The notes under the pieces are model-generated. The model saw only the letters and a program-made list of their open reading frames with translations. It searched no databases and was not told where the DNA came from. Below are positions 6,362 through 62,417 of a stretch of DNA of 64,000 nucleotides, piece after piece. Both the position numbers and the translations under genes were made by a program. Positions within the stretch are counted from its first letter, which is position 1. Each line of letters starts with the position of its first letter. Source of the DNA: Isurus oxyrinchus (Eukaryota); contig JANJGN010000034.1 in NCBI GenBank assembly GCA_026770705.1, positions 13,082,001 to 13,146,000 of the forward strand. Direction: 5' to 3'.

Positions 6362-6478
6362 TTAACTTTGCATGTACTTGACATCGGCATACACAGTCGG
6401 TTCCTCCTTCTCTCCGTGTGCAGCAGTGTGCGCCAGTACGTTAAGATCGAGAGCGGCATAAACGATCCCTTGTTCGTC
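6362..6478 (-). CDS. Gene A terminal exon with ITIM (IVYAAL) and ITSM (TVYADV)
   Basis: NAGNAG acceptor ctctag|cag|; DEQGIVYAALDLNVLAHTAAHGEKEEPTVYADVKYMQS*. Confidence 0.85.
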   Translation of the reverse strand, partial: DEQGIVYAALDLNVLAHTAAHGEKEEPTVYADVKYMQS

Positions 6479-9400
6479 CTGCTAGAGTGTGCAGAAATAC
6501 AAGCAGAGTTTCAAACTCACATTTCATCCCAGTAAGGATCACAGTCTATAACTTACAACCACTTGTAATAACAACAGCAGAAGTTGTCAGAAATGCATGG
6601 GCAACAACAGCCAGAAAAGGACAAACATCCTGGGGGGGTTACCATTGACCAGAAACTGAACTGGACCAGCCTTATAAATACTGTGGCTACAAGAGCAGGT
6701 CAGTGGCTAGGAATCCTGCGGTGAGTAACTCACCTCCTGACTCCTCAAAGCCTGTCCACCATCTACAAGGCACAAGTCAGGAGTGTGATGGAATACTCCC
6801 CACTTGCCTGGATGTGTGCAGCTCCCACAACACTCAAGAAGCTCGACATCATCCTGGACAAAGCAGCCCCGCTTGATTGGCACCACATCCACAAACATTC
6901 ACTCCTTCCACCACCGACGCACAGTAGCAGCAGTGTGTGTACCATCTACAAGATGCACTGCAGGAGTTCACCGAGGCTCGTTAGACAGCACCTTCCAAAC
7001 CCAGGACCACTACCATCTAGAAGGACAAGAATAGCAAACACATGGGAACACCACCTTCTGGAAATCCCCCTCCAAGCCACTCACTATCCTGATTTGGAAA
7101 TATATGGGCCGCTCCTTCACTGTCGCTCTGTCAAAACCCTGGAACTCCCTCCCTAACACGGACTGCTGTGGTTCAAGAAGGCAGCTCACCACCACCTTCT
7201 CAAGGGGGAATTAGGGATGGGCAATAAATGCTGGTCCAGCCAGCGAAGCCCACATCCCGTGAATGAATGAAAAAATAAGCGTTAGAAATTTACCCTGGCT
7301 TGAGTTCAAAATGCATGGAATCGAATGGTGCATCTGTTTCTTTTCACTGGCCTGTGTAATGCAGACATCACTGCTGAGGCCAGCCTTTATTATCCCCTCC
7401 CATTGCCCCTGCAAAGGTGGTGGCAAGCTGCTTTCCTGAATCACCGCAGTCCACGTGATGTCGGTAAACCCGCTGTGCCTTTTCCTCAGCTGGTCATGTT
7501 TTGGTGCAGCTCAGTGGCTTGGGAGGACAATTCAGAGGGTTGTTAAGGGTCACCCATGGTGCTGTGGGTCTGCAGTCAGGCTCAGGCCATACCAGAGAGG
7601 AGGGGAAGATCACCTTCCCCAAAGGACGTTGGCGAACAAGTTGGGGGTTTAGGACAATGAGGTGGCTGCACATGGCAGTTTGTCGGTCCACAGCCTGAAA
7701 ATGGGTTATCTTTCCCCTATATTAGCACGTCGCTATTTAACAGGCACTCAGTGGAGTTGACTAGAGTGGGATGTGAGCACTTCACCTTCAGGCGCAAGGC
7801 TCATGAATAAGATCAGCATTTTATTTGAGAGTTTGAAACTCATCCTGCAGCTTTGATAGGATTTGAACACATAGCTCTGGATTTCTGCATTACTAGCCCA
7901 GGAACATAACACTATGCTACCATCCCCCTATTGCAATGGGAAACAACGTTAATTTTCATATCATAACCAAACAATTCCCCTTAGTACAAGTTTTAAATAA
8001 TATGATAAAACATTTTTCATAGCTTGTAACTTTAAAAATCAAGTTCTAACCCCACAAGGTGCATCTGAGGGATTTTATTCCATTAACAGGGTATATTTAC
8101 ACTTAGGCCCATGAGTCTAAAGCATCACAGAGGGGACTCTGTCTCAGCTGATGAAAAGACTGTGACTACTGGAGTTCCTTCTACTGAAATTGGGCTAAAG
8201 AAAATCCCACAAATTCCTCATCACAAGTTAGAACAAACACTGCATTTAACATACCCGAGTTAGTGCAAACGCTGCATTTAACATACCTGAGTTAGTGCAA
8301 ACACTGCATTTAACATACCAGAGTTAGTGCAAACACTGCATTTAACATACCCGTGTTAGTGCAAACACTGCATTTAACATACCAGAGTTAGTGCAAACAC
8401 TGCATTTAACATACTGAGTTAGTGCAAACACTGCATTTAACATATCCGAGTTAAAGCAAACACTGCATTTAACATACCCGAGTTACTGCATTTAACATAC
8501 CCGAGTTACTGCATTTAACATACCCGAGTTACTGCATTTAACATGCCCGAGTTACTGCATTTAACATGCCCGAGTTACTGCATTTAACATACCCGAGTTA
8601 CTGCATTTAACATGCCCGAGTTACTGCATTTAACATGCCCGAGTTACTGCATTTAACATACCCGAGTTAGTGCAAACACTGCATTTAACATGCCCGAGTT
8701 AGTGCAAACACTGCATTTAACATGCTTGAGTTAGTGCAAACACTGCATTTAACATGCCCGAGTTAGTGCAAACACTGCATTTAACATGCCCGAGTTAGTG
8801 CAAACACTGCATTTAACATGCCCGAGTTAGTGCAAACACTGCATTTAACATGCCCGAGTTAGTGCAAACACTGCATTTAACATGCCCGAGTTAGTGCAAA
8901 CACTGCATTTAACATGCCCAAGTTAGTGCAAACACTGCATTTAACATGCCCGAGTTAGTGCAAACACTGCATTTAACATGCCCGAGTTAGTGCAAACAAA
9001 TGCATTTAACATGCCCGAGTTAGTGCAAACACTGCATTTAACATACCTGTGTTAATGCAAACACTGCATTTAACATACCCGAGTTAGTGCAAACACTGCA
9101 TTTAACATACCCGAGTTAGTGCAAACACTGCATTTAACATACCCGAGTTAGTGCAAACACTGCATTTAACATACCCGAGTTACTGCATTTAACATACCCG
9201 AGCTACTGCAAACACTGCATTTAACATACCCGTGTTAATGCAAATACTGCATTTAACATGCCTGAGTTAATGCAAACACTGCATTTAACATGCCCGAGTT
9301 AGTGCAAACACTGCATTTAACATACCCGAGTTAATGCAAACACTGCATTTAACATGCCCGAGTTAATGCAAACACTGCATTTAACATGCCCGAGTTAGTG

Positions 9401-12400
9401 CAAACACTGCATTTAACATGCCCGAGTTAATGCAAACACTGCATTTAACATGCCCGAGTCAATGCAAACACTGCATTTAACATGCCCGAGTTAATGCAAA
9501 CACTGCATTTAACATGCCCGAGTTAATGCAAACACTGCATTTAACATGCCCGAGTTACTGCATTTAACATACCCGAGTTAGAGCAAACACTGCATTTAAC
9601 ATACACAAATTAATTCAAATACATACCTGAGTTTGGGAGGTGTTGACACATCTTTCTATGCAATTGGAAGAAAAGTATAATTTAAAGTGATTAATCTAAA
9701 CTTTACCAAACTATATAGTCAAAATGTTCACATTTCATATGGTTGTACTTTCTGTGGGCTCTCTCTTTTACCTATTTCCTCTTTTGCTAAATGAAGTTCA
9801 CTTAAGAACCCTCCCTCTCCCAATCTCCCCTCCTCTTTCCATGACAACTGTCCATCAGCAAACCAGTGGCTCGCTCCGGTCTTCCTGATTGGAATTGAGC
9901 ACTTTTCCTTGTTCTGATGAACGGTCAGAGGCCCAAAACGGCAACTCTGTTTCCCTCTCTAGTGACACTGCCTGACCTGCTCGGTATTTCCGGCATTTCC
10001 GGTTGGGGGACGCGATGACATCATGTCATTTGTCACTGGGCTAGCAATCCAGAGTCCCAGGCTAATGCTCTGGAGACACCCGGGTTTGAATCCTCCCACG
10101 GCAGGTGGGAGAAATTTGAATTCAATGAAAACCCGAATTAAAAGTCTGATGATGACTTTATGATTGTCGTTTAAAAAAAAAACCATCTGGTTCACGAATG
10201 CGCTTTAGGGAAGGAAATCTGCTGTCCTTTCCTGGCCTGGTCTACATGTGACTCCAGACCCACAGCAATGTGGTTGACTCTGCAATGCCCTCTGAGCAAG
10301 AGCAATAGGGATAGGCAATAAATTTTGGCCTAGGCAGTGACGCCCATACCCCAGTAATGAATTAAAGAAAAAATAATTATTGCATATGCTAATGAATACC
10401 ATTCATTCCTTGTCAAAATCAATAATGGATGGACTGCGGAGATTCATCACAAAGGGGCATGTAAAATGGGCGGTATTGGATAGTCCGTGCATTGCACTCC
10501 TCACATGGTATGCAACTCCACTGGTTGCAACAGATATCTAAGTGATCAATGCACCTAAGCACGCTTAAAAAAAAATTCCCATTACCTTGAGTTCGTCGCT
10601 TCCTCCAAATTAACGCCACAGTCAACACAATGAGAACAACACCCACCACAGGAGCCACTATTTTGATCATGTATAAAAATTCAGGTTTGCCTACGGAATT
10701 GGATTTGAAAGAAATAAGGACAATGTCATTGAAAGCGGGAATTGGAGCTGACGGGCTATACTCGGTGGTCAGTCATGTACACTGATTGTGGACAGTAATT
10801 ATTGCAGCTCCCCCTCGCACCTCTTCGATTACCAGGTTTGGTGGGGGATGTTGTTTGCATCACCTTCTCAAGGGCAATTAGGGCTGGGAAATCAATGCTG
10901 GCCCAGCCAGCGATGCCCATATCCCATGGAAGAATAAGAAAAAAGCTTTAATGAGGAAACAGTTGAAGGGAAAACTCAAGGGAAATGCAATTACATCCCG
11001 ATTCATGTGCTGATTAACTACTTTTTCAATGGCCCTTAGAATTAGGCCAGGATGATCAACAGGAAATAGCTCATGGTATTCCATTGTCTTCTGTGAGGGA
11101 ATTCATTAAAATCCTTCAGATATGTCCTCAAACCGAACCAAATTCCCTGTACTCACGGAGCCCAAGCAATCCTGTAATTGCAGGCAAATGAGCAGAAAAA
11201 TCTGCCTTTCTAGCCCTATGGAAATGAAAGAGGCTATTTGAAAAGTACCTTCATATATAATTAATATACTTCATCTACAAGGCACAGGTCAGGAGTGTGA
11301 TGGAATACTCTCCACTTGCCTGGATGAGTGCAGCTCCCACAACACTCAAGAAGCTCAACACTATCCAGGACAAAGCAGCCCTGCTTGATTGGCACCCCAT
11401 CCAAAAACATTAACTCCCTCCACCACTGACACACAGTAGCAGCAGTGTGTACCAGCTACAAGATGCACTGCAGCAATTTGCCAAGGATCCTCAGACGGCA
11501 CCTTCCAAACACACCATCTCTACCACCTAGAAGGACAAGGGCAGCAGACACATGGGGACACCACCGCCTGCAAGTTCTGCTCGGAGTCACTCACCATCCT
11601 GTCATGGAAATATATCAGCCATTCCTTCACTGTCTCTGGGTAAAAGTATTGGAACTCTCTCCCTAACAGCGCTGTGGGTGTATCTACACCACAGGGGCTG
11701 CAGCGGCTCAAGAAGGCAGCTCACCACCACCTTCTCAAGGGTGACGAGAGGCGGGAAATAAATGCTGGCCCAGCCAACGATTCCCACAAACCGTGAAAGA
11801 ATTTTTTAAAAATCTTCACATTGGCAACTGGTTTTCAAGAGTTTATAAAGCAACAGGAACTTGACAAGATTCAGGATAAAGATGGACAAATGGTGGGTCC
11901 TGAAAACATGACCGGCATTTGGGGTCTGAGGATCTATTGCTCGTTGAAATAAAGAAGTTGCGTTTTTATAGCACCCTCCATGATTTCCACAGATCTCAAA
12001 GTGAACTCATCATCCCAATCATCTAATTTCATGTGTGGCCGTTTATTAAATTCCAGCACTTACGCTTTTGTTAACAAAATGAAAGGGAATTTGGCCCTTT
12101 CTATCGCTCTATTAACTTGTACCTACCTTTAGGGGAGTCTTTTAAGATTATTTCCAGTTTGCCTTTCCCTGTCCCAATTGAGTTGGCAGCTTCACAGATC
12201 CAGGTCCCATTCATTAAATTGCTCACTTTCTTTATGAACACACTTGCATTTCTGGCCTCCAATCCTTCTGGTAACCTGGGGAGAGCCAACGATGCACATG
12301 TAAGAAATGCCTTGGTGACTAAATCTAGGTGATGAATATTAGCTCTGGCCTCCAAAGAGCAGATACGCTCCACCAGATTGTATCACTGGACGGTATGGGA

Positions 12401-24400: not shown

Positions 24401-24618
24401 AACTGTGCTCTTTTCTGCCGATGCTGCCAGACCTGCTGAGTTTTTCCAGGTATTTCTGTTTCTGTTTTTGTTTTGCATTTTACCCTCTTTGGAGCAAGAG
24501 GGAAGCGGGAACGTTTCTTGAAAAATGCATCAAATGCAACATTCATATAGCAAATGTGAACCTTACCAGACAGGAGAAGAGCAATGCACGCAGTAGAAAT
24601 CCACGCCAGCTGAGTCAT
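6362..24618 (-). CDS. Gene A: nectin/PVR-like V-C-C Ig receptor with ITIM+ITSM tail (inhibitory), 8 coding exons, about 400 aa
   Basis: join(complement) 24567-24618, 16887-17225, 15178-15471, 14056-14173, 12127-12275, 10586-10690, 9627-9655, 6362-6478 = 1203 nt. All introns are GT-AG with compatible phases (1,1,1,2,1,1,0) and the frame is open to TAA. Nectin/PVR hallmarks are YPPEVTITGYDGNW and a third Ig domain split by a phase-2 intron. Confidence 0.88.
6605..7275 (+). mobile_element. L2/CR1-clade LINE 3' end with (TGAA)n tail (shark HER1-like)
   Basis: MEYSPLAWM.AAPTTLKKLD; tail ggcaataaatgctgg...cccacatcccgtgaatgaatgaa. Further copies at about 11275-11800, 17658-18500, 19845-20170, 33960-34285, 37100-37752(-), 50780-51005, 63255-63690. 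Confidence 0.82.
8236..9603. repeat. Minisatellite, 32-bp unit gagttagtgcaaacactgcatttaacatRccc with 23-bp deletion variants
   Basis: Direct tandem array of roughly 40-50 units with no spacers. Confidence 0.95.
9627..9655 (-). CDS. Gene A exon 7, 29-bp cytoplasmic exon (ERCVNTSQTQ)
   Basis: Pyrimidine tract + gcatag| acceptor and CAG|gtatgt donor; supplies the required phase 1->0 change. Confidence 0.72.
10025..10370 (+). mobile_element. tRNA-derived SINE (shark HE1-like)
   Basis: B-box-like ggtttgaatcc and a LINE-shared 3' tail; related copies at about 20780-21110(-), 27118-27470, 33545-33915, 35950-36270(-). Confidence 0.75.
10586..10690 (-). CDS. Gene A exon 6, transmembrane (uncharged core)
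   Basis: GKPEFLYMIKIVAPVVGVVLIVLTVALIWRKRRTQ; ccgtag| acceptor, CAAG|gtaatg donor. Confidence 0.88.
12127..12275 (-). CDS. Gene A exon 5, third Ig domain second half
   Basis: LPEGL...NGTWICEAANSIGTGKG; ccccag| acceptor, AAAG|gtaggt donor. Confidence 0.9.
14056..14173 (-). CDS. Gene A exon 4, third Ig domain first half
   Basis: YPPEVTITGYDGNW...LNCEAKANPPATNYTWSR; ctgtag| acceptor, CG|gtaaat phase-2 donor. Confidence 0.92.
14847..15109. mobile_element. About 260-bp TIR element with hammerhead-like cores in both TIRs (copy at 42848-43110)
   Basis: tgtcCTGATGAGtgcaaggtGAAAagctTCaac at 15064-15096 and an inverted copy at 14856-14892. Confidence 0.7.
15178..15471 (-). CDS. Gene A exon 3, second Ig (C-type) domain
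   Basis: ccaag|CA acceptor, T|gtaagt donor; VANCTS.YGNPAAEITW...DGQTVTCIISHP resembles nectin D2. Confidence 0.92.
16887..17225 (-). CDS. Gene A exon 2, IgV domain
   Basis: ctgcag|CT acceptor and TTAG|gtgtgt donor; LPC...W...DQGMYTC IgV motifs; LFPQG in the FG loop. Confidence 0.93.
17658..18500 (+). mobile_element. LINE fragment at the inner end of the left arm
   Basis: Same junction as 37100-37752(-) in the right arm, but more diverged than the arms themselves. Confidence 0.82.
21288..24475 (+). mobile_element. Penelope-like element with an inverted 3' end (pLTR) copy at its 5' side
   Basis: 21742-24475 encodes RT+GIY-YIG with stops and frameshifts; 21288-21741 is the reverse complement of about 24055-24475. 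Confidence 0.92.
24366..24404 (+). ncRNA. Minimal type I hammerhead ribozyme-like motif in the Penelope 3' end
   Basis: agtt-CUGUUGA-a-gggtc/gactc-GAAA-cg-UC-aact; copies at 999-1037(-), 21389-21427(-), 28026-28064(-), 41667-41705(+), 46472-46510(-). Confidence 0.65.
24567..24618 (-). CDS. Gene A exon 1, signal peptide MTQLAWISTACIALLLS
   Basis: ATG, hydrophobic leader, phase-1 donor TCTG|gtaagg; clearly similar to the gene B leader. Confidence 0.8.
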
Positions 24619-27470: not shown

Positions 27471-27961
27471 ACAATTTAAAGTTGACATTAGAGAAAGTGC
27501 AAAATTGATTTTACTTTTCAAAATGCAGCACTGTGAGGTGCCTCACTGCCGGTAGCGACTTGTAAACTCGTGATGATTCAACACTGAATAAACCTTTCTC
27601 TGGCACGTTAACTGACGTTCCTCCTGATGTTCACAGAATCACAGGGTGCAGAAGGGGCCCATCGAGTCTGCACTGACACATGAGAAACACCTGACCTACC
27701 TACTTAATCCCATTTACCAGCACTTGGCCCATAGCCTTGAATGTTATGACGTGCCAAGTGATCTCATATTCTAGGCTGTGGGAACCACTTTGCCCTTACA
27801 GTTTGAGGCTCCCTGCCTCCTTTGTAACCAGATCTACCCAGGCTCCCCAATCATTTGATATGCCATGTTTATGTAAATGATGTGACTGAGCCCTCCACGT
27901 GTTTAATGAGCTTGGCTCATCGATCCCCTCACTTTGAACTTCCTCAGGTTGCCTCATTTCC

Positions 27962-29611: not shown

Positions 29612-31183
29612 ATTTTTGCCTCATTTCCACAATTGCCTCATTTCCGCTCGTCTCGGGTGACAGCCAGTCCTACGCCCATTCTGGATACGATAGTGATCCT
29701 GGCTGCCAGCATTTCCATGCATTCACGGGGCCGAGGGTCGCTTGTCCCTCAGAGGCAGTCTTATAAATAGATTGTGGAACCGGTTAGTCACAGTTGCCCA
29801 ATCTCCTGAGGAGAGGCTCTGGAAATGTGTTAAATTGAGAAAAGCAATTTGCAACTCTGCAAGTCTCCACCTCCCAGCCTCCAGTTCCCCTTCCACGCTG
29901 AATGGTGTGCGTGTTAGGGAAATATTGAACTCAATGCAGTGGTCAGCAAGTTTCAGATCTTAATGTACAGACTTACAGCATTTTATTTTGTATTTTCAGC
30001 TCCCCCACCTCCCAACTTCCACACCCTAAATTTACATGAGGCAAGCTTTTGCAGGCAGTTGGGGCCTCGTTCACTAAAGCTTTATTCCTATGTTCAATGC
30101 TGGTATTGTCACTAAACTAGTAATCCAGATGCCTACATGTAACTTCAGACCCATGAGCAATGTGGTTGGCTCTTAAACGCCCTTTCAGCAAGGTCAATTT
30201 GGGAAGGGCAATAAATGCTGGCCTAGCCAGTGACCCCCGCATCCCCATGTATGAATAAAAAAACAAAATCCAATTGCTACATAAGCGGTGAGTTTCCAGA
30301 CAGGCCTTATCGAGGGGAAGGTTATTGCCCAGTGTGTGATGAGTAAGGGTACATTTAAGCTACTTAAGTGGTTTTTGATTCATTTGCCCCAAGCACACAC
30401 ATATATATTTATATATATACATTAAATATATGAGGGCAATACATAGAGTGGACAGGATAAAATTGTTTCCCTTGGTGGAGGATTCCACAACCAGGGGACA
30501 TAGATTCATGATAAGTGGCAGAAGGCGTAGGGGGGACATGAGGAAGAACTTTTTTACACAGAGAGTAGAGGGTGTCTGGAATACGCTGCCCAAGTTGGTG
30601 GTCAAGGCAGAAACTCTAAACTCTTTTAAAAAGTACTTGGATGTGCACCTTAAGTGCTGTAAGCTGCAGGGCTATGGGCCGGGTGCAGGGAGGTGGGATT
30701 AGAAAGGGTGCCTGGGTGTCCTTGGGCTGGCATGGACATGATGGGCTGAATGGCCTCCTTCTGTGCTGTAACTTTTCTACACTTCCATGGTTCTATTTAT
30801 AATCCTGACTTCTCTATACATAAAAACATGTTAATTTGGTTGAAGGGCTGTTTCAACACAGCGCCCATGCCTAACACGTTCAGCCTGTGTACCAGTTATG
30901 ACATCAATGGCACTGTGCTCACTCCCTTGCTAAATGCGGAAATGTAATTGCAGAGCCTGTTTTCTCTTTGTGTGTAAATAAATATATCGGAAGCGTGGAG
31001 CTGCTCAGCTGGGTGGCCCATCCATTATGCGAGTCATTCTGCTCTTTGAAAATTGCAACGGAAATAAGTAAAAGCAGCTGTCACCCAAGGGGTATTGAGA
31101 CAGCTTGTGTGAGGCACCATCTCCCCAGAGTGTCACCTGCTTTCACCTGCTGGAGAAGCAACGGTGAATGTTTCCACTTCGAA

Positions 31184-31232
31184 ATGGCATTAATGGTTTG
31201 GATGTCGATGGCATATGTTGCACTTCTGTCTG
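31184..31232 (+). CDS. Gene B exon 1, signal peptide MALMVWMSMAYVALLS
   Basis: gaaATGG start context, hydrophobic leader, consensus donor TCTG|gtgagt (phase 1). Confidence 0.8.
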
Positions 31233-37200: not shown

Positions 37201-40200
37201 GTGCTGTCGAAGGAGCCTTGGTGAGTTGCTGCAGTGCACCTTGTAGATGGTACACACTGCTGCTACTGTGCGTCGGTGGTGTAGGGAGTGAATGTTTGTG
37301 GATGGGGTGCCAATCAAGTAGGCTGCTTTGTCCTGGACGGTGTCAAGCTTCTTGAGTGTTGTGGGAGCTGCACTCACCAAGGCAAGTGGGGAGTATTCCA
37401 TCACACTCCTGACTTGCACCTTGTAGATGGTGGACAGACATTGGGGAGTCAGGAGGTGAGTTACTTGTAGCAGGATTCCTAGCCTCTGACCAGGCCTTGT
37501 AGCCACAGTATTTATATGGCTGGTCCAGTTCAGTTCCTGACCAATGGTAACCCCCAGGATGTTGATAGTGGGGGATTGAGTGCTGGTAATGCCACTGAAC
37601 ATCAAGGGGAGATCGCTGGATTCCCTCTTGTTGGAGATGGTCATTGTCTGGCACTTGTGTGGCATAAATGTTACTTGTCACTTGTCAGCCCAAGCCTGGA
37701 TATTGTCCAGGTCTTGCTGCATTTGGACATGGTTGGCTTCAGTATCTGAGGAGTCTTACGTAAACGCCAAAAATATTAATGAAAGCGAAATCGCCCAAGG
37801 AAAAATGAGTTCTTTATTTAGCAGATGAAAAGCAACATCGGAACGGGGGGAGGCCATTCAGCCCCTCGATCATGCGGCGCCATTCAGTTGCTCTGCTTGA
37901 CATTCAGTACTGCTGGTGCCAACGCGGCTGAATATCGGGCCGAGCGGAGAATGGGCGAGCCACGGTATATCGCACGTTTAACTCGAGCGCCAGGGACCAG
38001 ATTTCCCCCCCACCCCCGGGCGGAGCCTTGTGGGCAGGCTGTCGGACAGGAGTAGCTGCACTTTCTTACTCCTCACACATGCCTGTTGAGGATTTAATGT
38101 TCCTTGGGGGCCTCTGATTCGGATTGAGGAGAAATCAGCTTCTAATGTGTTTCCTAACTCCGCCAATTATTGTTGTTCCTGCAGCTACAACCAGTAACCA
38201 CGTTTCAGCTGTGACCCTTACCGCTCTTGTTGGGACTGAGGCACTGCTTCCATGCCGGATATCACTAAACAACTCAAATTTGACACAGATCCAATGGAAA
38301 AAGGGCACTGAGGATAAATCCTTCGTAGTGTATAATCCTAAATTCGGGATATCATTCAGAGATGAAAACTACTCCAGTCGGGTCGTTTTCAGAAACCATT
38401 CACTACTGGACGGATCAATTCTATTGAAGGCTCTGGAGATGGAGGATCAGGGAATGTATACGTGCATATACACGCTATTCCCTCAGGGAGTAGTTGAGAA
38501 ACCAATGAAACTAACGATTTTAGGTATGTATTCTACATGGAGCATTGTTCACGTGAAGATTCATCTGTGGGTTAACGTGATGTTCATGCAGAGAGGGGGA
38601 GGGACTGAATTTTGGGTTGTCCATCCGGGTGTAAACTTAATACCCCTGCAATTATCATCAAAACTGTTGTGTAATTCTAACACTTTAACCTAGTCACATT
38701 CTAGCTCCGATTCATTATTTTATCATAGAGCTATTACTGAGATATTTAGTGTTTGTTTAGCAGTTGCGAGTGAAGCTTTTATTTATGGGAAGGTTGGGAG
38801 TGTCAGACACAAACGAGTAAAGTTTATCATATTCGTCTTCTCCCATTATTGATAGCCACATTCTGCAAAGATATCAGAGCCATTGACGACTCTCAGCAAT
38901 CAATCTGTACCAATTAATCTCTAACAGGTACAGACATGAGGCAAGAGAAATCCCCATCCCCAGCGCTGGAGAACTTTGGGAAGCAGATCTACACCGCAAG
39001 CATGTTGCAGTGATCCCGCGTCACTTCACACACTCTGTCAGATACAGTACCCCTCCCTGTATTCTTCACCCCACTGCAGCTCTTTGACGCTCTCTCCCAC
39101 TTCCTCGCCGTCCACAATCGATCCCCCATCAGTCGCTTTCATGGTCGATTCATGGATCCACCCCTCTGAGTCCTGGTCTGACCTGCAGGTCACAGGCATT
39201 TGTTTCACTGTCCTGGGTTTCAGTGCCACCTCTTACCCTCCAGCATGGTTCCAACACTCTTCCTTCAATATTCTCCCTCCACCTGGACCCCTCCCTCTGG
39301 ATTCTTACCTTCTCTTGATCTTTTCATTGAGAACTGTCGGCACGACATTAGTCGTCTCAATTTCTCTGCTCCTCTCACCCATTCTAACCTGTCTCTCTCT
39401 GAACTTACTGCACTCCATTCTCTCAGGTCCAACCCTGACATTGTCATCAAACCCGCTGACAAGGGTGTTGCTGTTGTTGTCTGGCGCACTGACCTCTACC
39501 TCGCGGAGGCTGAGTGGCAACTCGCAGACACTTCCTCCTACCTCTCCCTGGACCATGACCCCACCACTGAACATCAAGCCATTGTTTCCAGGACTGTCAC
39601 TGACCTCATCTCCTCTGGGGATCTCCCTCCCACAGCTTCCAACCTGATAGTCGCCCAACCTCGGACGGACCGCTTCTACCTCCTACCCAAAATCCACAAA
39701 CAGAACTGCCCCGGTAGACCGATCATGTCAGCTTGCTCCTGCCCCACAGAACTCATTTCTCGTTATCTTGACTCCCTTCTCTCTCCCCTTGTCCAGTCCC
39801 TTCCCACCTACATCCGTGATTCCTCTGACACCTTACATCACATCAACAATTTCCAGTTCCCTGGCCCCAACCGCTTCCTCTTCACCATGGACGTCCAATC
39901 CCTCTACACCTCCATCCCCCACCAGGATGGTCTGAGGGCCCTTAGCTTCTTCCTCAAACAGAGGCCCGAACAATCCCCATCCACCACTACTCTCCTCCAT
40001 CTGGCTGAACTTGTTCTCACGTTGAACAATTTCTCCTTCAACTCCTCTCACTTCCTCCAAATAAAAGGTGTGGCTATGGGTACCCGCATGGGCCCCAGCT
40101 ATGCCTGTCTCTTTATGGGGTATGTGGAACATTCCTTGTTGCAGTCCTACTCCGACCCCCTTCCACAACTTTTTCTCCGGTACATCGATGATTACTTCAG

Positions 40201-43200
40201 TGCCGCTTCATGCTCTCGTCGGGACTTGGAAAAATTTATTAATTTTGCTTCCAATCTCCACCCCTCCATCATTTTCACGTGGTCCATCTCTGACACTTCC
40301 CTTCCCTTCCTTGACATCTCTGTCTCAATCTCTGGTGATAGACTGTCCACCAATATCCATTACAAACCCACCGACTCCCACAGCTACCTCGACTACAGCT
40401 CCTCACACCCCGCTTCCTGTAAGGACTCCATCCCATTCTCTCAGTTCCTTCGCCTCCGTCGCATCTGTTCCGATGATGCTACCTTCAAAAACAGTTCTTC
40501 TGACATATCCTCCTTCTTCCTTAACCGAGGTTTTCCACCCACGGTCATTGACAGGGCCCTCAACCGTGTCCGGCCCATCTCCCGCGCATCTGCCCTCACG
40601 CCTTCTCCTCCCTCCCAGAAACATGATAGGGTCCCCCTTGTCCTCACTTATCACCCCACCAGCCTCCGCATTCAAAGGATCATCCTCCGCCATTTCCGCC
40701 AACTCCAGCATGATGCCACCACCAAACACATCTTCCCTTCACCCCCCTTATCGGCATTCCGTAGGGATCGCTCCCTCCGGTACACCCTGGTCCACTCCTC
40801 CATCACCCCCTACTCCTCAACCCCCTCCTATGGCACCACCCCATGCCCACGCAAAAGATTTAACACCTGCCCCTTCACTTCCTCTCTCCTCACCGCCCAA
40901 GGGCCCAAACATTCCTTTCAAGTGAAGCAGCATTTCACTTGCATTTCCCCCAACTTAGTCTACTGCATTCGTTGCTCCCAATGTGGTCTCCTCTACATTG
41001 GAGAGACCAAACGTAAACTGGGCAACTGCTTTGCAGAACACCTGCGCTCTGTCCGCAAGAATGACCCAAACCTCCCTGTCGCTTGCCATTTTAACACTCC
41101 ACCCTGCTCTCTTGCCCACATGTCTGTCCTTGGCTTGCTGCATTGTTCCAGTGAAGCCCAACGCAAACTGGAGGAACAACACCTCATCTTCCGACTAGGC
41201 ACCTTACAGCCTTCCGGACTGAATATTGAATTCAACAACTTTAGGTCGTGAGCTCCCTCCCCCATCCCCACCCCCTTTCTGTTTCCCCCTTTCTTTTTTT
41301 TCCAATAAATTATATAGATTTTTCTTTTCCCACCTATTTCCATTATTTTTAAATATTTTAAAATCTTTTATGCTCACCCCACCCCACTAGAGCTATACCT
41401 TGAGTGCCCTACCATCCATTCTTAATTAGCACATTCGTTTAGATAATATCACCAACTTTAACTTTAACACCTATGTGTTCTATTGTACCATTGTCATTGA
41501 CATCTTTTGATGATCTGCTTCTATCACTGCTTGTTTGTCCATACAACCACACCCCCAACCCCCCACCCCCCAACCCCCCCACAACCTCTCTCTCTCTATC
41601 TCTCCGCCCCCCACACACACACCTTAAACCAGCTTATATTTCAACTTTTTCTTGGACTCGAACTCAAGTTCTGTCGATGTGTCATGAGGACTTGAAACCT
41701 CAACTCTTTTCTTCTCCGCCAGACCTGCTGAGTTTTTCCAGGTAATTCTGTTTTTGTTTTGGAGTTCCAGCATCCGCAGTTTTTTTGTTTATAACGCTTC
41801 CCTCAGCCGCACACTAGGCCCCCCAAATTTCGCCTCCCAGTGGCACAGGCCAGTCCTTGTGGCACTTGCTGATTGGGTGATCAAGTGCCAATGATACAGT
41901 TTCGATCATGGCCATTTTTCTCAGTCCTGAAGCTGGAACATCGCCAGCCTTTTATTTGCCATCGCCGCAAAGACACCCCCTTCCCCTCATAAAGATGGGG
42001 ACAGGGCCCAGGGCCAAGCCAGTTTCTCACACGTTGCTGCATTTCTACCCACCTACCCCACCCTCTCAAAACCCAGTGCTCCGCCCATTTCCTTTGGTCC
42101 TTCCGCACCCAGCTGCCCCCACAACACCCGTCGCCAGTGCCAGTCCCATCCAAGACCCATCCCTTTGGCACCATATGTAGAGCATAAGCACAAGTTGGAT
42201 CTGACTGAGAGCAATAACGTGGCTGAACTGAGACCAATCGCTTTACTTCTTATATTCCTGCTCATTCCTTCCATTCTCCCATTGCCTTTGTCCCTCTCTC
42301 CTCACTTTCTTACCTCGGTCCCCTCTTTAACCGTAACGTCATCCATGATGCAGTTGGGCCATTTGATGGAGACATGTAAATATTGACAGGATCTGGTTTC
42401 TGTATTTTTTTTGCTCCGGATTAATTGCAAGCTCCTGACGTGTTTGAAACGGACGTTGAGTTAATTTCTTGTTTATCTCCCCAAGCAATTCCCAGTAACA
42501 GGGCGATCCCGGTTCCCGCACGGACTGCTGATTCAGAAGTGCCAGTGGCAAATTGTACTTCAACCTACGGGAACCCAGCAGCCGAGATCACGTGGATTTC
42601 CGGTTCCCATGGAAACTATACAACAACCCTGATTGAAAACAACAACGGGACAACAACTGTTATCAGCCTGTACAAGATGGCACCTAATGACGATGATGAT
42701 GGTCAAACAGTGACGTGTATTATCTCCCACCCAGCATCAAACAGCACAGATACTTACACGATAAAATTATTGATCCTCTGTAAGTTCCGTATACAAAGAC
42801 AATTAATTCCAATAGTCGCTTGGTAGGACAGAAGTTGAGTATTGCAGAAAAAAGAGCACGGTGAAGCTTTTCACCTTGCACTCATCAGGACACTTCACTA
42901 TAATACCGATATAAGGAGAAAACAACGATTTATACTGCATGTGAAGAGAGTGCTGGTTGGTTGGCAAGCGGACTCTGATTGGGCTCTGTGTAATAATATA
43001 TGTAGCTTCCTGTACACACAAACACACACACATTGTTTTCCCTTCATTTCAGTATTCTTGCAAAGTGTCCTGATGAGTGGAAGACAAAAAGCTTCCACGT
43101 CTCTTTTTTCATCAATACAAAAATAATGTAATCCAATTCAAAGTGCGCTGCCGTTGAGTAACGAGACAGCAATCTCCTCCCCTAACTAGAGAAGTGTTAA

Positions 43201-46200
43201 ACTTCCCTCACTGGCTGAATTGACATTTTCTGGATATCCGCGATTCCAGCATTGCTGGGCCGGTTCAATGTGACCGGTTGTGGTTGATTCGCCAGCCGCA
43301 CATATTAAATAATTCAAAAGCGATCATTTTCTTCGGGAGGTTAGAGAGCTTGTATCATTTTCTGGGCGTAAAGACTTGTTTGCAACAATTCGGGGTCACT
43401 TCAACTTTGGATGGTTAGGCTGAGTGGGGTGTTTTCCAGCGTGGAAGTTGCTCTATCAATGCAGTCGGAAGTTGCAGTTCAGAATGAACCTCATGGCCTG
43501 AATCATGGGTTATCGGAGCAAGCAGCGACTTTCAAGCGACATGTTAAACTGTGGTGGTTTTCCTTTGAGGTTATCGTTGCTTTACACAGGACATGTGATT
43601 CACTTAACATGAAAGGCAAAGACTGTTTTAAATATGTGGACGGGCCAGAGCTACTGACCTACCATTTCCTGCCAATCTGGCCTGTTGTACAAATGCACCA
43701 ATGTGGATTCTCTACTGTGTTGGATGTACTGACCACATGATCACAATAATTTCCTCTGTAGATCCACCAGAAGTGACCATAACAGGTTATGATGGCAACT
43801 GGAGTGAAAACACTAGGGATGTTACTCTCAATTGCGAGGCCAAAGCCAATCCCCCAGCAACAAATTACACTTGGTCACGGTAAATATGCGCTTCATTTAT
43901 TAAGAATTGCATTGTGTATATTTTCAAAACTGTGTAGATCATGGATCGCTCAGATCTTTTCATACAGTTTGTGATCTGGTTGTTGAACTGGAAATAGGCC
44001 CCTCCGCACGGGTTTTGTTTACATGTCTCTGCTTTAAGGAAAACATTCGTGAAAAAGCTGTGGTCATGCGAAGGTGTTTAACAAGAACCTTCACTGACTG
44101 ACTCTGTACCTCAGCGGCCTTCAGAAAGGCCAAACCGAGAATCTGTGACCCGTGGGCCGGTAGATACAGATTGGCTGAGCAGCAAGAGGCCATTTGCTGA
44201 ACTAGTGTGGTAATAAGTTTTGCATACTTGAGATGCAGAAAGGCCAACTGATCGCAAATGAACACCAACACACTTCCAATTTTATGCCTCGCTATTTGGG
44301 TTCGCGGAAAAAATATATTGTGTTAAAAACCTGGAGAGCCATTTGAAATGTGTCTCCTACAAAATACAACTGAAACCCAAAATAACCACTTGTATCTTGG
44401 GGTAATTTTTTCCTTGGGTCAGTTAAGGACATGGTGGGTAGAGTGAACATCGTGAGTGACCAGACACAGCATTAAGAATGAATCTGCCTCTGCTTGCCAA
44501 GCTAGCAGAGATGGAGAAGGGGAAAATGTAGTGTGTGTAAGATCATCATGTAGGCAATATTTATGAATGAGATGATGGGGGTAGTGGGGGGGCGATGGGA
44601 TTGAATGGCTTTAATATGGGGGTAAATATTGACCACAATACAGGAGTGTGTGTAGAATGGGCCAAGCAGCCCAGGTGGAAAAGAGCTGATAAACCCAGCC
44701 CTGGGGAAAGGCCCCAAATGCAGGAGGACTTCAACAAACAGCGATGAGTGGTACTGTTGTATGATGTTCTGTACCAGAAATCTTTCAGATTATTTACATT
44801 ATGGGCGACTTTGGGAAATGTCAAAATATAGGATTGGTCGCCCATGATAAGTCGTTTGTTATCACCATCTCCTGAGTGGGCTATTTGACATTGTCTAGTT
44901 TCTTCACTGGTTTTCTTCAATCCTCCACCATCCACATCTCAGTGCTATCCACCCATTCAGTTCTTCATCTTCCTCTTCTCTTTTTACCTTCAATTCCTCC
45001 TTCAGTTGAGGACACGTCTTTGTTTCCGATCTCTGTACTTGCTCATCATTCTGTCTCCGCCTGTACTTGGCAACCCTTTTGATTCCTGAACTTCTGCTCT
45101 TGACCTAAGCCACCCTTTGACCTTCCTGTCCATCCAGCTGATTCTGAGCATCCTCCGCCAAACCCACATTTCAAAATCCCTAATCCCCCTCTTATCCTCC
45201 TTCCACAGAGTCCAAATCTCACATGCAATGGATGCAACACTCTACGCTGTTGACCGTACCAGATATTTTCTTTTCCAGCTATATGCTGATGCTTTTGGAT
45301 TTACAGGGGCTACTTAAATCACTGTTCATGCCTCTTGCTGTAGCTAATCTACCTGGATTGCATTCTTGGGTATAACTTTGGTGTTTATCATCAAGTCAAT
45401 GTACTTGAAATTGTCCCTCTATCTCGGTACTTCCAATCTTGACTTTCCCATTGCTATTTAGAGCCAGAAAATTGGTCTTCAACTCATTTATCTCATGTAT
45501 ATCATTCATGCCCTACTATACACCATGAGTAACATCCCATACCGTCCAGTGATACAATCTGGTGGAGCGTATCTGCTCTTTGGAGGCCAGAGCTAATATT
45601 CATCACCTAGATTTAGTCACCAAGGCATTTCTTACATGTGCATCGTTGGCTCTCCCCAGGTTACCAGAAGGACTGGAGGCCAGAAATGCAAGTGTGTTCA
45701 TAAAGAAAGTGAGCAATTTAATGAATGGGACCTGGATCTGTGAAGCTGCCAACTCAATTGGGACAGGGAAAGGCAAACTGGAAATAATCTTAAAAGACTC
45801 CCCTAAAGGTAGGTACAAGTTAATAGAGCGATAGAAAGGGCCAAATTCCCTTTCATTTTGTTAACGAAAGCGTAAGTGCTGGAATTTAATAAACGGCCAC
45901 ACATGAAATTAGATGATTGGGATGATGAGTTCACTTTGAGATCTGTGGAAATCATGGAGGGTGCTATAAAAACGCAACTTCTTTATTTCAACGAGCGATA
46001 GATCCTCAGACCCCAAATGCCGGTCATGTTTTCAGGACCCACCATTTGTCCATCTTTATCCTGAATCTTGTCAAGTTCCTGTTGCTTTATAAACTCTTGA
46101 AAACCAGTTGCCACTGTGAAGATTTTTTAAAAATTCTTTCACGGTTTGTGGGAATCGTTGGTTGGGCCAGCATTTATTTCCCGCCTCTCGTCACCCTTGA

Positions 46201-49200
46201 GAAGGTGGTGGTGAGCTGCCTTCTTGAGCCGCTGCAGCCCCTGTGGTGTAGATACACCCACAGTGCTGTTAGGGAGGGTGTTCCAAGACAGGTGATTCAC
46301 TTAACATGAAAGGCAAAGACTGTTTTAAATATGTGGATGGGCCAGAGGTACTAACCTGCCATTTCCTGCCACTCTGGCCTGTTGTACAAAAGCACCAATG
46401 TGGATTCTCTACAAAAGCAGAATTACCTGGAAAAACTCAGCAGGTCTGGCAGCATCGGCAGAGAAGAACAAATTTGACGTTTCGATTCCTCATGACCCTT
46501 CAACAGAACTAAATAAAAATAGGAGATGCCTGAAATACAAGCTGGTTAAAGGGGGGGGGGGGGGGGGGGTGGGGGGGGGGGCAAGAAAAGTGGGGGTGGG
46601 GGTGGTTGTAGGGACAAGCAAGCAGTGATTGGAGCAGATAATCAAAAGATATCACAGACAAAAGAACAAAGAGGTGTTGAAGTTGGTGATATTATCTAAA
46701 AGAATGTGCTAATTAAGAATGGATGGCAGGACATGCAAGGTACAGATAGCTCTAGTGGGGGTGGGGTGAAATAAGACTAAAAGGGCATAAAAGGTATAGA
46801 TTTAAAAATAATGGAAATAGGTGGGAAAAGAAAAATCTATATAAATTATAGGAAAAACAGAAGGGAGGGGGGAGAAACGGAAAGGGGGTGGGGATGGAGG
46901 AGGGAGTTCAAGATCTAAAGTTGTTGAACTCAATATTCAGTCCTGGAGGCTGTTCAGTGCCTAGTTCGAAGATGTCAATTTTGGAAGGTGCTGTCTAAGG
47001 ATCCTTGGTGAGTTGCTGCAGTGCATCCTGTAGTTGGTACACTCACTGCTGTAACTGTGCATCGGTGGTGGAGGGAATGAGTGTTTGTGAATGGGGTGCC
47101 AATCAAGAAGTCTGCTTTGTCCAGGCTGGTGTCGAGCTCCTAAGTGTTGTGGGAGCTGCACTCAACCAGGCAAGCGGGGAGCATTCCATGACACTCCTGC
47201 ATTGTGCCTTGTAGATGAAGTATATTAATTATATATGAAAGTACTTTTCAAATAGCCTCTTTCATTTCCATAGGGCTAGAAAGGCAGATTGTTCTGCTCA
47301 TTTGCCTGCAATTACAGGATTGCTTGGGCTCCCCGAGTACAGGGAATTTGGTTCATTTTGAGGACATATCTGAAGGATTTTAATGAATTCCCTCACATGA
47401 GACAATGGAATACCATGAGCTATTTCCTGTTGATCATCCTGGCCTAATTCTAAGGGCCATTGAAAAAGTAATTAATCAGCACATGAATCGGGATGTAATT
47501 GCATTTCCCTTGAGTTTTCCCTTCAACTGTTTCCTCATTAAAGCTTTTTTCTTATTCTTCCATGGGATGTGGGCATCGCTGGCTGGGCCAGCATTGATTT
47601 CCCAGCCCTAATTGCCCTTGAGAAGGTGATGCAAACAACGTCCCCCACCAAACCTGGTAATTGAAGAGGCGCGAGGGAGAGGTGCAATAATTACTGTCCA
47701 CAATCAGTGTACATGACTGACCACCGAGCATATACCGTCAGCTCCAATTCCCGCTTTCAATGACATTGTCCTTATTTCTTGCAAAGCTATTTCCGTAAAT
47801 GATACTGCTGTATTTGTCACAGTTTCCCCGCCCCCCATTGTGTCCGAGTATTGCCCTGCACATTACAATCATCGGCTTCATTTTCCAGGCCTGCAGGATC
47901 GCCTCCCATCTTCAACCAGCCCCAAAATCTCCGTCTTCAGCCAAACAGTTGCCCCAGTTCACAGAATCACAGAATTTTGACAGCGCAGTAGGAGCCCATT
48001 TGGCCCATCGAGTCTGCACTGACTCCCCCTCTACAGTTCGCACCGGTCGCCTCAGGCCAACAACAGCGGTGCAGATCCTCACCCTTCAATGTTAACCGGA
48101 GTGTCAGACCTCACGTCTTCTGCATCAGGAGGATTTCTCAGTCCCAGCATTGAAATGCCGCCGCCATTTTGTTTATTACTGCCCCATATCCTGCCCCAGC
48201 CCCTCCCCCAAAACCATAGTCCACCATTGGTGGCAGAGCCTTCAGTCAACTCCAGCCAAGCTGTCTTGCAATACACCATTACACATTCCTCAGAAGCTCC
48301 TTCCTTTCCAATTCTGTTTCGGCCTCTCTCCTCATCCCCACATGCAGCTTGCGAAGGCTCTTAGCTACTTGCCACATGAAATGCATGAAAGTGGTATCCC
48401 CCACATTAAAAAAGTGTCCCTATTGCCCTCCCCAAGCCCAACTAACAAGAGATTGTTCCTGCTTTTCCTTCGTTTCATCCCCAAGGCTCTTTCCTTCCAT
48501 CTTATTCTTCCTTCCTTGCTTCCATCCCATTTCTTGCAGCGATGAATGAGTGAAGGCCTACGAGGCAGCAGCTGGAAGTGATTGGGCTCAGGACCTTGGT
48601 TTCACAAGCGTTTGCTGGTTGCCCAAGGTTGTGATGGTTTTACCGCGTCCACCACCGCCCAATATGTCAGGCCTAACTCAATTGATCCCATCACTGCATC
48701 TGATACAGGAAACAACAACTGCCCACCCCGTTGGATAAAAGAAATTAATAACAGAAGCAAGGTTATTGACAGGAAACTCAGAAAGATGATGTATTTTTTT
48801 ATTACTAACTTGTACCATTGTTTTACTTCCTGTTCGTTTCTATTTGATGATTTCGCAGATCATGGGAATGGAAAGCTAATCAACCCATGTGTGACATTGA
48901 GAGTAGTGGTGTTTGCTCTTTCCACGTTTCTCATTGTTCTATTCATCAGGCGAAAATGCAGACCAGCAGGTAAATCATCAGAAAATGAAAGGTGAAACCA
49001 AATACCTAAACGACTACAGATATTTCAACTCGGCGCTGGTGTTTAATAGTTCCACCATAATATCTTTCAACTTTCTTACGTTACTCTGGTCTTACCTTCC
49101 CACCAGCTTGCTCTCTCATTCAATTCAATTTCCGAGGGTCGGCTATTTGCTAATATTCTACCACAAGCCTGCAAACTATGTAGTTTACACTTCCTCCCAG

Positions 49201-52200
49201 CCTGCTCCCTATATAGACTCTCCTCTCTTCTCCCAGCGTCTTCATCTCCATTGCTCCTTTACTTATGATGCATCCTCCCATGCTGCTGCTTCTGATGGGT
49301 ATGTCTTCCTTCTTCCTCAGCTGAGGATCCCCACTACCACCTGACTAATTGACAGGGCCCCTAACTATGACCGCCCCTTTTCTCTCTCGTCAACTCACCC
49401 CCTTCCCCTATCAGCACCCCCTGCCCCCCTACACCAAAGCTGCTATAGGATTCTACTTGCCCTTATCTTTCACTCCACTATCTGCTACAATCCAACAGGT
49501 CATTGTCTGCCATTTCTGCCACCCCCAGTAGGATACCACCACCAAGTGCATCTTCCCCTCCCCTTCCCTTTGAGCATTTTGAAAGGGACCAATCCCTTCG
49601 TGACACCCCAGCTCACTAATCAATGACTTCCCCCACTTCCCGCCACACCAAATCCAGAAGATGTACCACTTGCCTTGTTACCTCCCCACATCACCCCACC
49701 CCCCCAACCCTTTCCCAAATTCCAGGGCTGCAAGTGCTTTTTCAGGGGAAACAGTGATTTATTTACACCTTTTTCAATTTGACATATTGCCTTTTTGCTG
49801 CTTACAATGCAGTCTCCTCTAAATCGGGCGACCAAAAGCACATTGACGATTGCTTTGTACACCACGTCCATCCAGTCTGCAACTGTGTTCCCCAATTCTT
49901 GTCATTTTAATTCTCCGCTCCACTCCCACTTTGACCTCTCTGTCCTCAGCCTGCTGCAGTGTTGTAATAAGGCCAATGGAAGTCAGAGGGGAAGCAATAT
50001 ATTTTTCGATTTACACCCGCCTGGACTTAATTTTGAGTTCAGTAATTTCAGATCATAACCTCTGCCCCTCTTTCTTGGTCAGCAGCTGTTGGAGATCTTT
50101 CTGCTGTTACCATTTACACCTCCTCTACAGCCTTCTTTTGTCTCTTTGCATGCCCCACTGCCAACCACTTTTACTTATTGTCAACGTTCCTTGTGTCATT
50201 TAATCACATAAGTCGCTTTAAGCTTGTTGCTTCTGTCACCTTTTCCAGCCCTGACAGACGGGGCAACAGTGGAAATGTTTGATCTGTTTCTGCCTCCACT
50301 GGAGCTGCCTGGCCTGCTGAGAATTTCCAGCAATCTCTGCCTTTATTTCAGATTTCCAGCAACTGCAGTATCTTGCTTTTGCACCCTCAATCAGAATTGT
50401 TGAGCTGGTTTACACCAGCGCATTCCTGCCTTTCATCAGGTGAAACAGCAGATGCGAATGTGCAATAACACAAGTCTCCTAATTTATATTTACAGCAGAA
50501 ACCTCTGTCAACGTTCCCGTTCAAAGAAAGACAATTGAGCAGGTAATTTAAAGCTACATTAATAGTTAGTAATTTCAGCTCTTTACTAAACATTTCACTT
50601 CTACTCTTGACAGCCTCAACTGTTTGCACCCAACCGGAACCACATGTTAGCAGTTGGTGTTTGAGACTGTAGCATTTAGCACAAATGGTTCACGTCTTAG
50701 TGACATCCCAGACAGTTACCTATGGAATATGTCAGTGTTCTTTACCACTAAAAATATTGTTCCAATGGCTTTGCATCTTTCCTCCAAGCCACTCGCCATC
50801 CTGACTTGGAAATATATCAGCCGTTCCTTCACTGTCGCTGGGTCAAATCCTGGAACTCCCTCCCTAACAGCACTGTGGGTGTACCTACACCACAGGGACT
50901 GCAGCGGCTCAAGAATGCAGCTCACCACCAGCTTCTCAAGGGCGGCTAGTGATGGGCAATAAATGCTGGGCCCAGCCAGCGAAGCCCATATTCCCATGAA
51001 TGAAAAGTAAGAAAAAATAGCAGAAGAAAAATGACACAGCTTTTCATTGATATAAGACCATAAGACCATAAGACATAGGAGCAGAAATTAGGCCATTCGG
51101 CCCATTGAGTCTGCTCCGCCATTCAATCATTGCTGATAAGTTTCTCAATCCCATTCTCCGGCCTTTGATATGAAAGCAGAAAATGCTGGAAAAATTCAGA
51201 ATGGACTCGAAACGTTGACTCTGCCCCTCTCTCCACAGATGCTGCCAGACCTGCTGAACTTTTCCAGCATTTTCTGTTTCTCTTTCAGATTCCCAGCATC
51301 CGCAGTGTTCAGCTGTTCGTTGACTGTCACCGGGACACACAGATTTGAGATAATTGGCAAAAAACCAGTGAGATGTTAAGGTTTCTTTTTCCTCCATGGA
51401 CCAGGCTGTTATGATCAGAAAGGGATGCTGAATAGGCTGTGGAAACAGATTCAATAGTAAATTTCAGAAGAAAATTGGGCAAATGTTTCAAAAGGAAACT
51501 CAGCAAGGTTATGCAGAAAGAGTAAGGGAGTGGGACTAATTAGGGAGAACTCTTTCTAAAGGCTGGCACAGGCAGAACAGGCTGAGGAACAAGCTTCGGT
51601 TCAGTGTGAATTCATGATTCTGTGAATGATTCTCATTTACTACCCAGAGAGTTGTTGATGTTTTTGTCCCCCTGTTCATTGACTGTGCTGTACCTGCCTG
51701 TCCCCATGTCGTCTTAGCTCTTCTGTTGATGCGAATGCCTGAATGTTCCTGGATTGAACCGTATTCTCTTTATTTTCCAGGATTTGTCAGATGTGAACGC
51801 CACTTACATGGTAGGGTGGAAGACATATTTATTTCAAGTGAGACTTTATTTAGGCAAATGAACATTATTGAGTTACTAACGAATCACACTTGTGGCAACT
51901 TCCCACAGGGCCTGAACTTAGCAGAAGAATCGGTCTACAGTGAATTACAGAGGTATAATTTATTCTGCTTCATTAACTGTGAGCCAATCCAAAGACAACA
52001 TGAATATATCTGACTGTCGTCTATCCATCTCTGCATCTATCACTTATCTATCTATCTATCCATCTATCTATCTATCTGTCTCTCTGCCTGTCTGTCTGTC
52101 TATCTATCTATCTGTTTGTCTATCTATCTGTTTATCTGCCTATCTGTCCAACTGTCTGCCTGTCACTCTGTCTGCCCCTCTGTGTGTCTCTCTGTGTGTC

Positions 52201-61506: not shown

Positions 61507-62417
61507 TTACTTTGATGAGGAGAAAAGTTCACCAATAAGAGTAAAAGGATATTTCACCGCCCTCTTCAGCTCCTCTCTGACCTTACTCTGGGTCAGTGCA
61601 TAAACAGCAGTGTTTGTACAGGAGCTCAGGTAGAACAGCATGGTCCCAGATATATCGGCAACAATAACCGGGTGGTTATAACTAGGGTAAGAGTGGTTGT
61701 TGGAGATCTCCACCAGTAAGAAAACACAGATCTTGGTCATCCACAGCAAGATAAAACTGCCTGATACAGCAAACAGCAGAATGATGGACCTCCGCCTGTT
61801 GGCCACCTCGGTATCTCCTCGCAGCTCCCCCTTACTGGGACCCCGGAGGCCCCTACGGGCTCGATTGGCCAGCACAATGTGCCTGACGGTCAGAGCATTG
61901 AGCAGCAGGATCAGGAGGTGGGGGATCAATGGGTTCAGCAGGTGGTGGAGCCAGAAAAATGGCACCCAACCCAGTGAGGTAAAGAATTCCAGTCTGGTGG
62001 CACAGCCCCAGGGTACACCGTCCCACTTCCTAGAAGGTTGGAACTTAAAGTAAAAAGGGACATTCCTCAAAAAGCTCAAAAGGCAAATGGTCATTATCAC
62101 TACTGCCGCTGTTTTCTTGGTGCAAAATCTGGATTTCAGATTGTGACAGCAAATGGCCACAAAACGGTCGAAGATGAGAGTGATGGTCAGCCAAACGGAA
62201 CAGTCTATAGCAGCGTAACCCAGCATGGCGTTAGCGCTGCACACTGCCATGTAGAACAGGAATGAGAATGGGAAATAGCTGAAACTAAGTGTAGTGAGTA
62301 TGACATTGAAGATAATGACCATTAGATCGGCTGTCGCCATGGAGACCAGGTAGAGAGAAACACCTTTGCTGAGGCCGCACTTTCCCCGAGACAGATTCAC
62401 AATCGTCACTAAATTAG
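61507..62417 (-). CDS. Class A GPCR, GPR139/GPR142-like; main coding exon (first exon not located)
   Basis: ANLVTIVNLSRGKCGLSKGVSLYLVSMATADL, DRFVAIC, RRRSIILLFAVSGSFILLW and SSCTNTAVY; acceptor ccttccag|CT at 62417. The ORF extension to 62553 is probably intronic. Confidence 0.85.

Follow-up and report, generated by a model that had tools for sequence, protein, structure and literature searches.

Two head-to-head genes with opposite tails

The window, meaning the whole 64,000-nucleotide stretch of Isurus oxyrinchus DNA analysed here, holds on predicted exon borders two complete genes, A and B, which lie head to head, each with its own leader exon. Their exons and the tract that they share are as follows.

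31184..31232, plus strand: gene B leader exon (tblastn 16/16 with P0003; donor site)
38185..38523, plus strand: gene B V-set exon, 112 codons, nectin-1-like V domain (AG/GT borders, open frame)
42486..42779, plus strand: gene B C1 exon (against A, 1 replacement and 1 silent difference)
43762..43879, plus strand: gene B C2 exon, first half (against A, 1 silent difference)
45660..45808, plus strand: gene B C2 exon, second half (against A, 1 silent difference)
48859..48969, plus strand: gene B transmembrane exon (tblastn with P0003/P0004; borders read by hand)
50496..50542, plus strand: gene B cytoplasmic exon 1
51781..51810, plus strand: gene B cytoplasmic exon 2, with the first half of the first ITAM YxxL
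51909..52013, plus strand: gene B last exon, completing the YxxL-x7-YxxL ITAM (3' end uncertain)
24567..24618, minus strand: gene A leader exon (joined to V in contig X8)
16887..17225, minus strand: gene A V-set exon, 96.2% identical to that of B (joined with C1 in contig X5, and with both the A leader and C1 in contig X8)
15178..15471, minus strand: gene A C1 exon (splice joint 15471/16887 in contig X5)
14056..14173, minus strand: gene A C2 exon, first half
12127..12275, minus strand: gene A C2 exon, second half
10586..10690, minus strand: gene A transmembrane exon, uncharged
9627..9655, minus strand: gene A short cytoplasmic exon
6362..6481, minus strand: gene A last exon, with ITIM-type IxYxxL and ITSM-type TxYxxV (conserved in other sharks)
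37770..46260 (B side) and about 11650-17640 (A side): inverted shared tract, ~98% identical

At the protein level A and B are 90% identical in V and 99% in C, and their tails carry opposite motifs, ITIM plus ITSM in A and YxxL-x7-YxxL in B; the three labels follow the usual consensus definitions. The joints from the A leader to V and from V to C1 were found at the predicted borders in contigs from runs presumed, rather than recorded, to be RNA. Within the 5 Gb genome the V exon had two DNA matches, the copies in A and B, the next protein match being at 40%. A single shared, invertible promoter for the two genes was considered and rejected, because each has its own leader.

The shared tract is broken by a retroelement-like insertion of ~2.5 kb (~39267-41793) in the V-C1 intron of B, which A lacks; related copies lie in the window at ~936-3141, 22009-24467 and 27959-29613. 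The transmembrane exon of B (48859-48969) carries an Arg (TLRVVV) where Carcharodon and Cetorhinus carry Gly; this residue could recruit an adaptor, or may be a private variant. At 50496-50542, Ser replaces the Tyr of a membrane-proximal YxN found in most other sharks' ITAM-type tails. Elsewhere in the window, a tandem repeat array of ~1.4 kb occupies 8226-9633 in a 3' intron of gene A, and a 364-codon open frame at 61507-62601 (minus strand) reads as a putative single-exon class A GPCR.

Family assignment and neighbouring loci

The ectodomain is V-C-C with a nectin-type V domain. The V exon matched Pfam V-set at E 5.8e-13 and, as its best PDB hit, nectin-1 D1 at E 4e-17; the best structural matches were nectin-1, nectin-3, CD226 and PVR. 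No CEACAM was among the 60 PDB sequences listed, and on this count and the nectin-type V-C-C ectodomain we rejected membership of the CEACAM family. Assignment to the classical nectins (nectin-1 to -4) was rejected because the tails end in tyrosine motifs, where those nectins have a C-terminal PDZ/afadin-binding motif, and because the V face is variable, where theirs is conserved. The tail ends are also unlike those of the PVRL2-like gene and nectin-1a, with the exact 3' end of B uncertain. Signature motifs of PVR are given, in the part of PMC4749091 that we drew on, as (V/I)(S/T)Q, A-x6-G and (F/Y)P-x-G; the window reads L-T-Q, V-x6-G and F-P-Q-G, one exact and two with a conservative change, and at the second motif Carcharodon and Cetorhinus have A.

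With regard to synteny with the mammalian NECTIN2-APOE-CLPTM1 block, a PVRL2-like gene lies ~0.6 Mb off (L007, 13.73 Mb; 74% to P0027), an apolipoprotein 1.5 Mb from the window has APOA-IV as its best match, and CLPTM1 family matches fall on other contigs (C31 and C3). The genome's real nectin-1 match is on contig C24 (L005), at 59% to fish nectin-1a. Further nectin-like V exons were noted on the window's own contig (L009, L006, L007 and L008, at 13.07, 13.17, 13.73 and 7.51 Mb); a conserved sister gene lies ~10 kb before the window, and a V exon ~21 kb after it is 50% like the V-only ITIM-type part of P0007. No description of this shark family, looked for also under pvrl2l, was among the papers listed from open-licence full text.

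Ectodomains that group by species and tails that group by type

Searching with V returned five named matches, all shark 'nectin-1-like' proteins, and the full-length search returned 35 proteins, mostly shark. Both tail types recur in Carcharodon, Cetorhinus, Scyliorhinus, Hemiscyllium, Stegostoma and Pristiophorus. P0031, P0028 and P0022, having no V domain, were left out of V comparisons, and P0003, having no C domains, out of C comparisons. In the V and C trees the ITIM and ITAM genes of each species join (support for the window pair being 99/97 and 100/97). The tail tree, built without the window's own tails, instead splits by type with 100/100 support. By this discordance the ectodomain is under concerted evolution, for which we infer gene conversion as the cause.

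The divergence of A from B in non-coding DNA falls from ~2% near V (38524-42486) to 0.6% in the C2 intron (43881-45660), a gradient that suggests conversion tracts of different age.

Replacement excess in the V exon

The first-pass annotation had claimed that V divergence is almost entirely non-synonymous, with one or two silent changes, and that the C domains are frozen. The V exons do differ at 13 of 339 nt and at 11 residues, exactly the replacements that it gave. Codon 106 (L/P, TTA/CCA) takes two changes, and the intermediate CTA occurs in contig X8, from another individual, so that 11 replacement and 2 silent differences, the latter including K39, is the best count. Its tally for the C exons (294+118+149 = 561 nt) also holds at four differences, one replacement (N/S) and three silent. 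'Frozen' was too strong a word: silent divergence in the C domains is 3/129 (2.3%), no lower than in the introns, so these domains are purified, not frozen, and the C exons are under purifying selection, with omega about 0.1.

Eight of the 11 V changes lie within the two peptides that had been singled out, modelled on strands C-C' (32-50) and F-G (89-111), and, as the annotation had it, only gene A carries an NLT sequon at V residue 108. Most changes are conservative (8 of 11), only E/K, L/P and N/K being radical. V/A19 and L/I35 are likely buried, N108 is outside the nectin-1 contact list considered below, and the cysteines, Trp37 and the D-x-G-x-Y-x-C core of V are retained.

For the A/B pair, V dN was 4.3-4.7% and dS 1.3-2.6%. 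Taken alone, the pair gave no significant replacement excess over the exon's own silent sites (P 0.15-0.39; ML P 0.11). V replacement sites (4.3-4.7%) exceeded the non-coding DNA of the shared tract 2.1- to 3.9-fold: against flanking introns (1.86%, 34/1825) at P 0.008-0.018, against all aligned non-coding sequence (1.19%, 60/5038) at P 0.0002-0.0006 and against the most diverged intron segment (2.07%) at P 0.03-0.055, values that are optimistic because the V exon was chosen after the fact. No 339-site non-coding window had more than 11 differences.

In other species C1 was nearly identical in every ITIM/ITAM pair (0-3 of 97 residues), while C2 differed at 9 (Cetorhinus), 4, 2, 6 and 6 of ~84 residues in five of them. 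Over three other species' pairs V differed at 18/323 residues vs 2/291 for C1 (P 0.0004); over four pairs V was not more diverged than C2 (29/435 vs 15/336, P 0.21).

Variation between individuals and codon models

At least seven further V codons (24, 38, 46, 53, 58, 76 and 94) vary in other individuals, all by replacement among the variants listed; those at codons 76 and 94 were also seen in one read of a third sample. Contig X5 has a C1 with two new replacements and one silent variant, again among the variants listed, and two of its variants match residues of a related shark (Q24 and P58). Contig X8, in which V is joined to the A leader, does not have A's residues at 35, 38 and 45; a contig may be chimeric, but these three sites and the A-type codons 39-40 all fall in one stretch of 31 bases. 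Part of the A/B divergence is therefore likely allelic, with no fewer than three of the 11 differences (those at 35, 38 and 45) resembling alleles of gene A rather than fixed differences between A and B. Raw reads from X21/X22 covered the V exon at a depth of only 0-3.

Codon models were fitted to A, B, the gene A allele X8, and contigs X17 and X15 from two runs of the related shark, for which the V differences, complete in each case, number 5 (X8), 29 (X17) and 30 (X15); the X5 haplotypes and the related shark's second V copy were left out. Omega was 3.9-4.0 with five sequences and 4.6-4.8 with three, with a wide error owing to the few silent changes, and omega=1 was rejected at P 0.007-0.010 (own implementation, three frequency models). 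Under omega=1, 5 of 988 bootstrap simulations reached the observed statistic; the test is slightly liberal, 68 of the 988 passing the nominal 5% level. Masking the eight multi-hit codons left P 0.012, and the neutral distance between A and B in the fitted model, 1.1%, is in line with the non-coding 1.19%. M2a was preferred over M1a (P 0.001-0.002), with the proviso that Logan contigs may be chimeric and recombination inflates site models. By region, omega was 8.6-12.7 on the face and 2.7-3.3, also above 1, elsewhere. Pooled distinct codon steps, counted along the most silent paths, gave 37 replacement to 6 silent (P 0.02-0.08), and pooled single-base steps 29 to 2 (P 0.003-0.011). IQ-TREE codon runs gained 4.1 likelihood units over a fixed-parameter model; their parameter order is unsure, and they are no independent confirmation.

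The first-pass annotation had proposed positive selection at the binding face, and had taken dN/dS of 1 or less with more sequences as evidence to the contrary. The pair alone does not carry its proposal (P 0.11); once alleles and the related shark are added, omega lies between 3.9 and 4.8 and the proposal gains ground.

Changes on the predicted binding face

An AlphaFold2 model of V (pLDDT 86.5) places strands C at 32-39, C' at 45-50, C'' at 54-57, F at 89-97 and G at 101-111. Table 2 of PMC5453625, the part of that paper used here, lists 33 residues of nectin-1 in contact with gD of PRV, HSV-1 or HSV-2, and mapped through the PDB alignment 31 of them have an equivalent in the shark V. Variant sites scattered away from the GFCC' face would have told against the earlier proposal; instead, on this alignment-based face, 7 of the 11 A/B changes fall on the 31 contact equivalents, where 3.0 are expected (P 0.0098). 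The seven are residues 38, 40, 45, 56, 94, 102 and 106, corresponding to nectin-1 Q68, A/S70, N77, S88, E125, N133 and Q137. N77 and E125 are placed at the gD interface in the portion of PMC3182920 available to us, which has the same sheet used in nectin-1 dimerisation. Five changes fall on the 19 shared core contacts (P 0.02).

Exposed residues are more variable in any protein, so control comparisons were needed. None of six (the sister gene four times, the PVRL2-like gene and nectin-1a) was enriched on the face, all falling below expectation; nectin-1a had 1 of 18 changes there. Within the family, the ITIM/ITAM pairs of four other sharks showed 31 changes in all, 16 of them on the face (P 0.009); taken singly, only two of five within-species pairs were enriched (window and Carcharodon). 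Four of five further family comparisons were enriched at P <0.02; being related by descent, the face comparisons are not independent of one another. Among orthologues, 12 of 22 changes lie on this face too. The three ITIM copies of Heterodontus have identical V domains. Taken together, positive selection concentrated on the predicted CC'C''FG face is supported, with moderate strength.

Interpretation

We read A and B as a shark nectin/PVR-like pair with opposite tails, in which the excess of replacements on the V face probably reflects diversifying selection by a putative pathogen ligand (a probability of roughly two in three). Recurrent gene conversion between the inverted copies would reset V exons, C exons and introns. 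By the statistics above, V replacements outrun silent changes ~4-fold, mostly on the predicted face, between copies, individuals and species, with C1 purified. A pathogen adhesin would engage the inhibitory receptor, thereby gaining entry to the cell or silencing it; V-face variants that escape the adhesin would be favoured, and the ITAM copy could serve as a mimic that turns pathogen binding into activation. On this reading the A/B difference is a snapshot of such turnover, partly allelic. With a conserved host ligand one would expect the face to be conserved as well, as it is in the control nectins. The nectin fold is used by herpes- and polioviruses in mammals; little is known of the innate receptors of sharks or of shark pathogens.

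Selection might instead drive the activating and inhibitory copies apart, for example so that the ITAM copy no longer binds a self ligand, with gene-specific differences resisting conversion. In Carcharodon, where two of P0003, P0038 and P0040 are V-only ITAM-type models, 13 V residues separate P0003 (ITAM) from the ITIM gene, its F-G loop being rebuilt and the Phe key lost, as this account would have it, while P0038 (ITAM) differs at only three residues, none on the face; the Carcharodon annotation fits the mimic idea in part. The loss of the N108 sequon in B and the concentration of B-lineage changes on F-G also point towards separation of the copies. Yet X8 indicates that A is not fixed for 3 or more of the 11 window differences, the V domains still cluster by species, and orthologues differ on that face too (12/22), so that we consider this account unlikely.

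Relaxed constraint with chance, in which V would be near neutral (omega about 1) and picked post hoc, would account for the non-significant within-exon pair tests, for the predominance of conservative changes and for the peak of intron divergence (1.5-2.1%) around the V exon. It is quite improbable nonetheless: omega=1 is rejected with added sequences, the changes are concentrated on one face that control nectins conserve, and the cysteines, Trp37 and the D-x-G-x-Y-x-C core are kept.

That one copy carries an older stretch at its V exon within a younger duplicon, whether an old balanced allele or a conversion from a third paralogue, would suit the V haplotypes that differ between individuals and the two X5 variants shared with the related shark (Q24, P58). 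Such a tract should raise silent differences too, which stand at 2 of 78 silent sites in V, near the introns; there is no third close copy in the animal's own genome (two DNA matches, next protein match 40%), and long-lived alleles would themselves imply balancing selection, which leaves this account very improbable.

Least probable of all is that the excess is an artefact, either of mutation (GC-biased conversion or multi-nucleotide mutations) or of assembly: adjacent doublets are frequent among the differences and replacements lean weak-to-strong 6:2 by hand count, but all 13 differences comprise 6 W-to-S, 4 S-to-W and 3 W-W (also by hand), the signal survives masking of multi-hit codons, contigs X1 and X3 of sample S1, perhaps the source of the assembly, hold both the A and B F-G haplotypes, and other sharks likewise have kept distinct leaders and tails.

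Diversifying selection by a putative pathogen ligand remains the reading that we prefer. A face on which replacement sites change ~4 times as fast as silent ones suggests that the receptor is engaged in an ongoing conflict, and singles out residues for testing. A bolder form, to which we give somewhat less than an even chance, is that sharks keep an ancient, hitherto undescribed nectin-fold decoy, in which an inhibitory PVR-like receptor used by pathogens has a conversion-updated ITAM twin and a polymorphic face is swapped between the loci. If true, this would be a cartilaginous-fish counterpart of CEACAM1/CEACAM3 on a nectin fold, and the fast sites would trace the footprint of the putative ligand.

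Comparison with known receptor pairs

With nectin-1 the shark genes share the V fold, the best sequence match (E 4e-17) and, in A, an equivalent N-glycan sequon on strand G; they differ in their tails, and nectin-1a conserves the face that varies in A and B. In predicted architecture they resemble PVR/CD155 (Necl-5), with its nectin-type V-C-C ectodomain, ITIM tail without a PDZ-binding end and rapid evolution, whereas PMC7286890, which makes no mention of ITAM, reports that PVR occurs in placental mammals alone and arose from nectin-2.

The evolutionary signature itself is of a known kind. CEACAM pairs (human CEACAM1/CEACAM3, dog CEACAM1/CEACAM28 and those of Xenopus) are likewise ITIM/ITAM paralogues with conversion-matched V domains, and the Xenopus ceacam pairs, as far as the sections of PMC5112662 available to us go, show conversion, opposite transcriptional orientation and replacements that build up on CC'C''FG after conversion; sections of PMC2832619 describe the same conversion and diversification logic in mammalian CEACAMs. 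The shark ectodomain differs in being nectin-type V-C-C, and its shared tract covers ~6 kb of V exons, C exons and introns, as against the N exon only in Xenopus ceacam301/303 by the same partial accounts. Of the marks of paired receptors, A and B show matched ectodomains with opposite motifs, concerted ectodomain evolution and, at moderate strength and from few sequences, apparent diversifying selection on the CC'C''FG face. The pair would extend the CEACAM logic of conversion plus diversification to a nectin-fold family in at least four shark orders, and would show that this paired design arose more than once. On this comparison, A and B are likely a conversion-matched paired receptor that would work as CEACAM pairs do.
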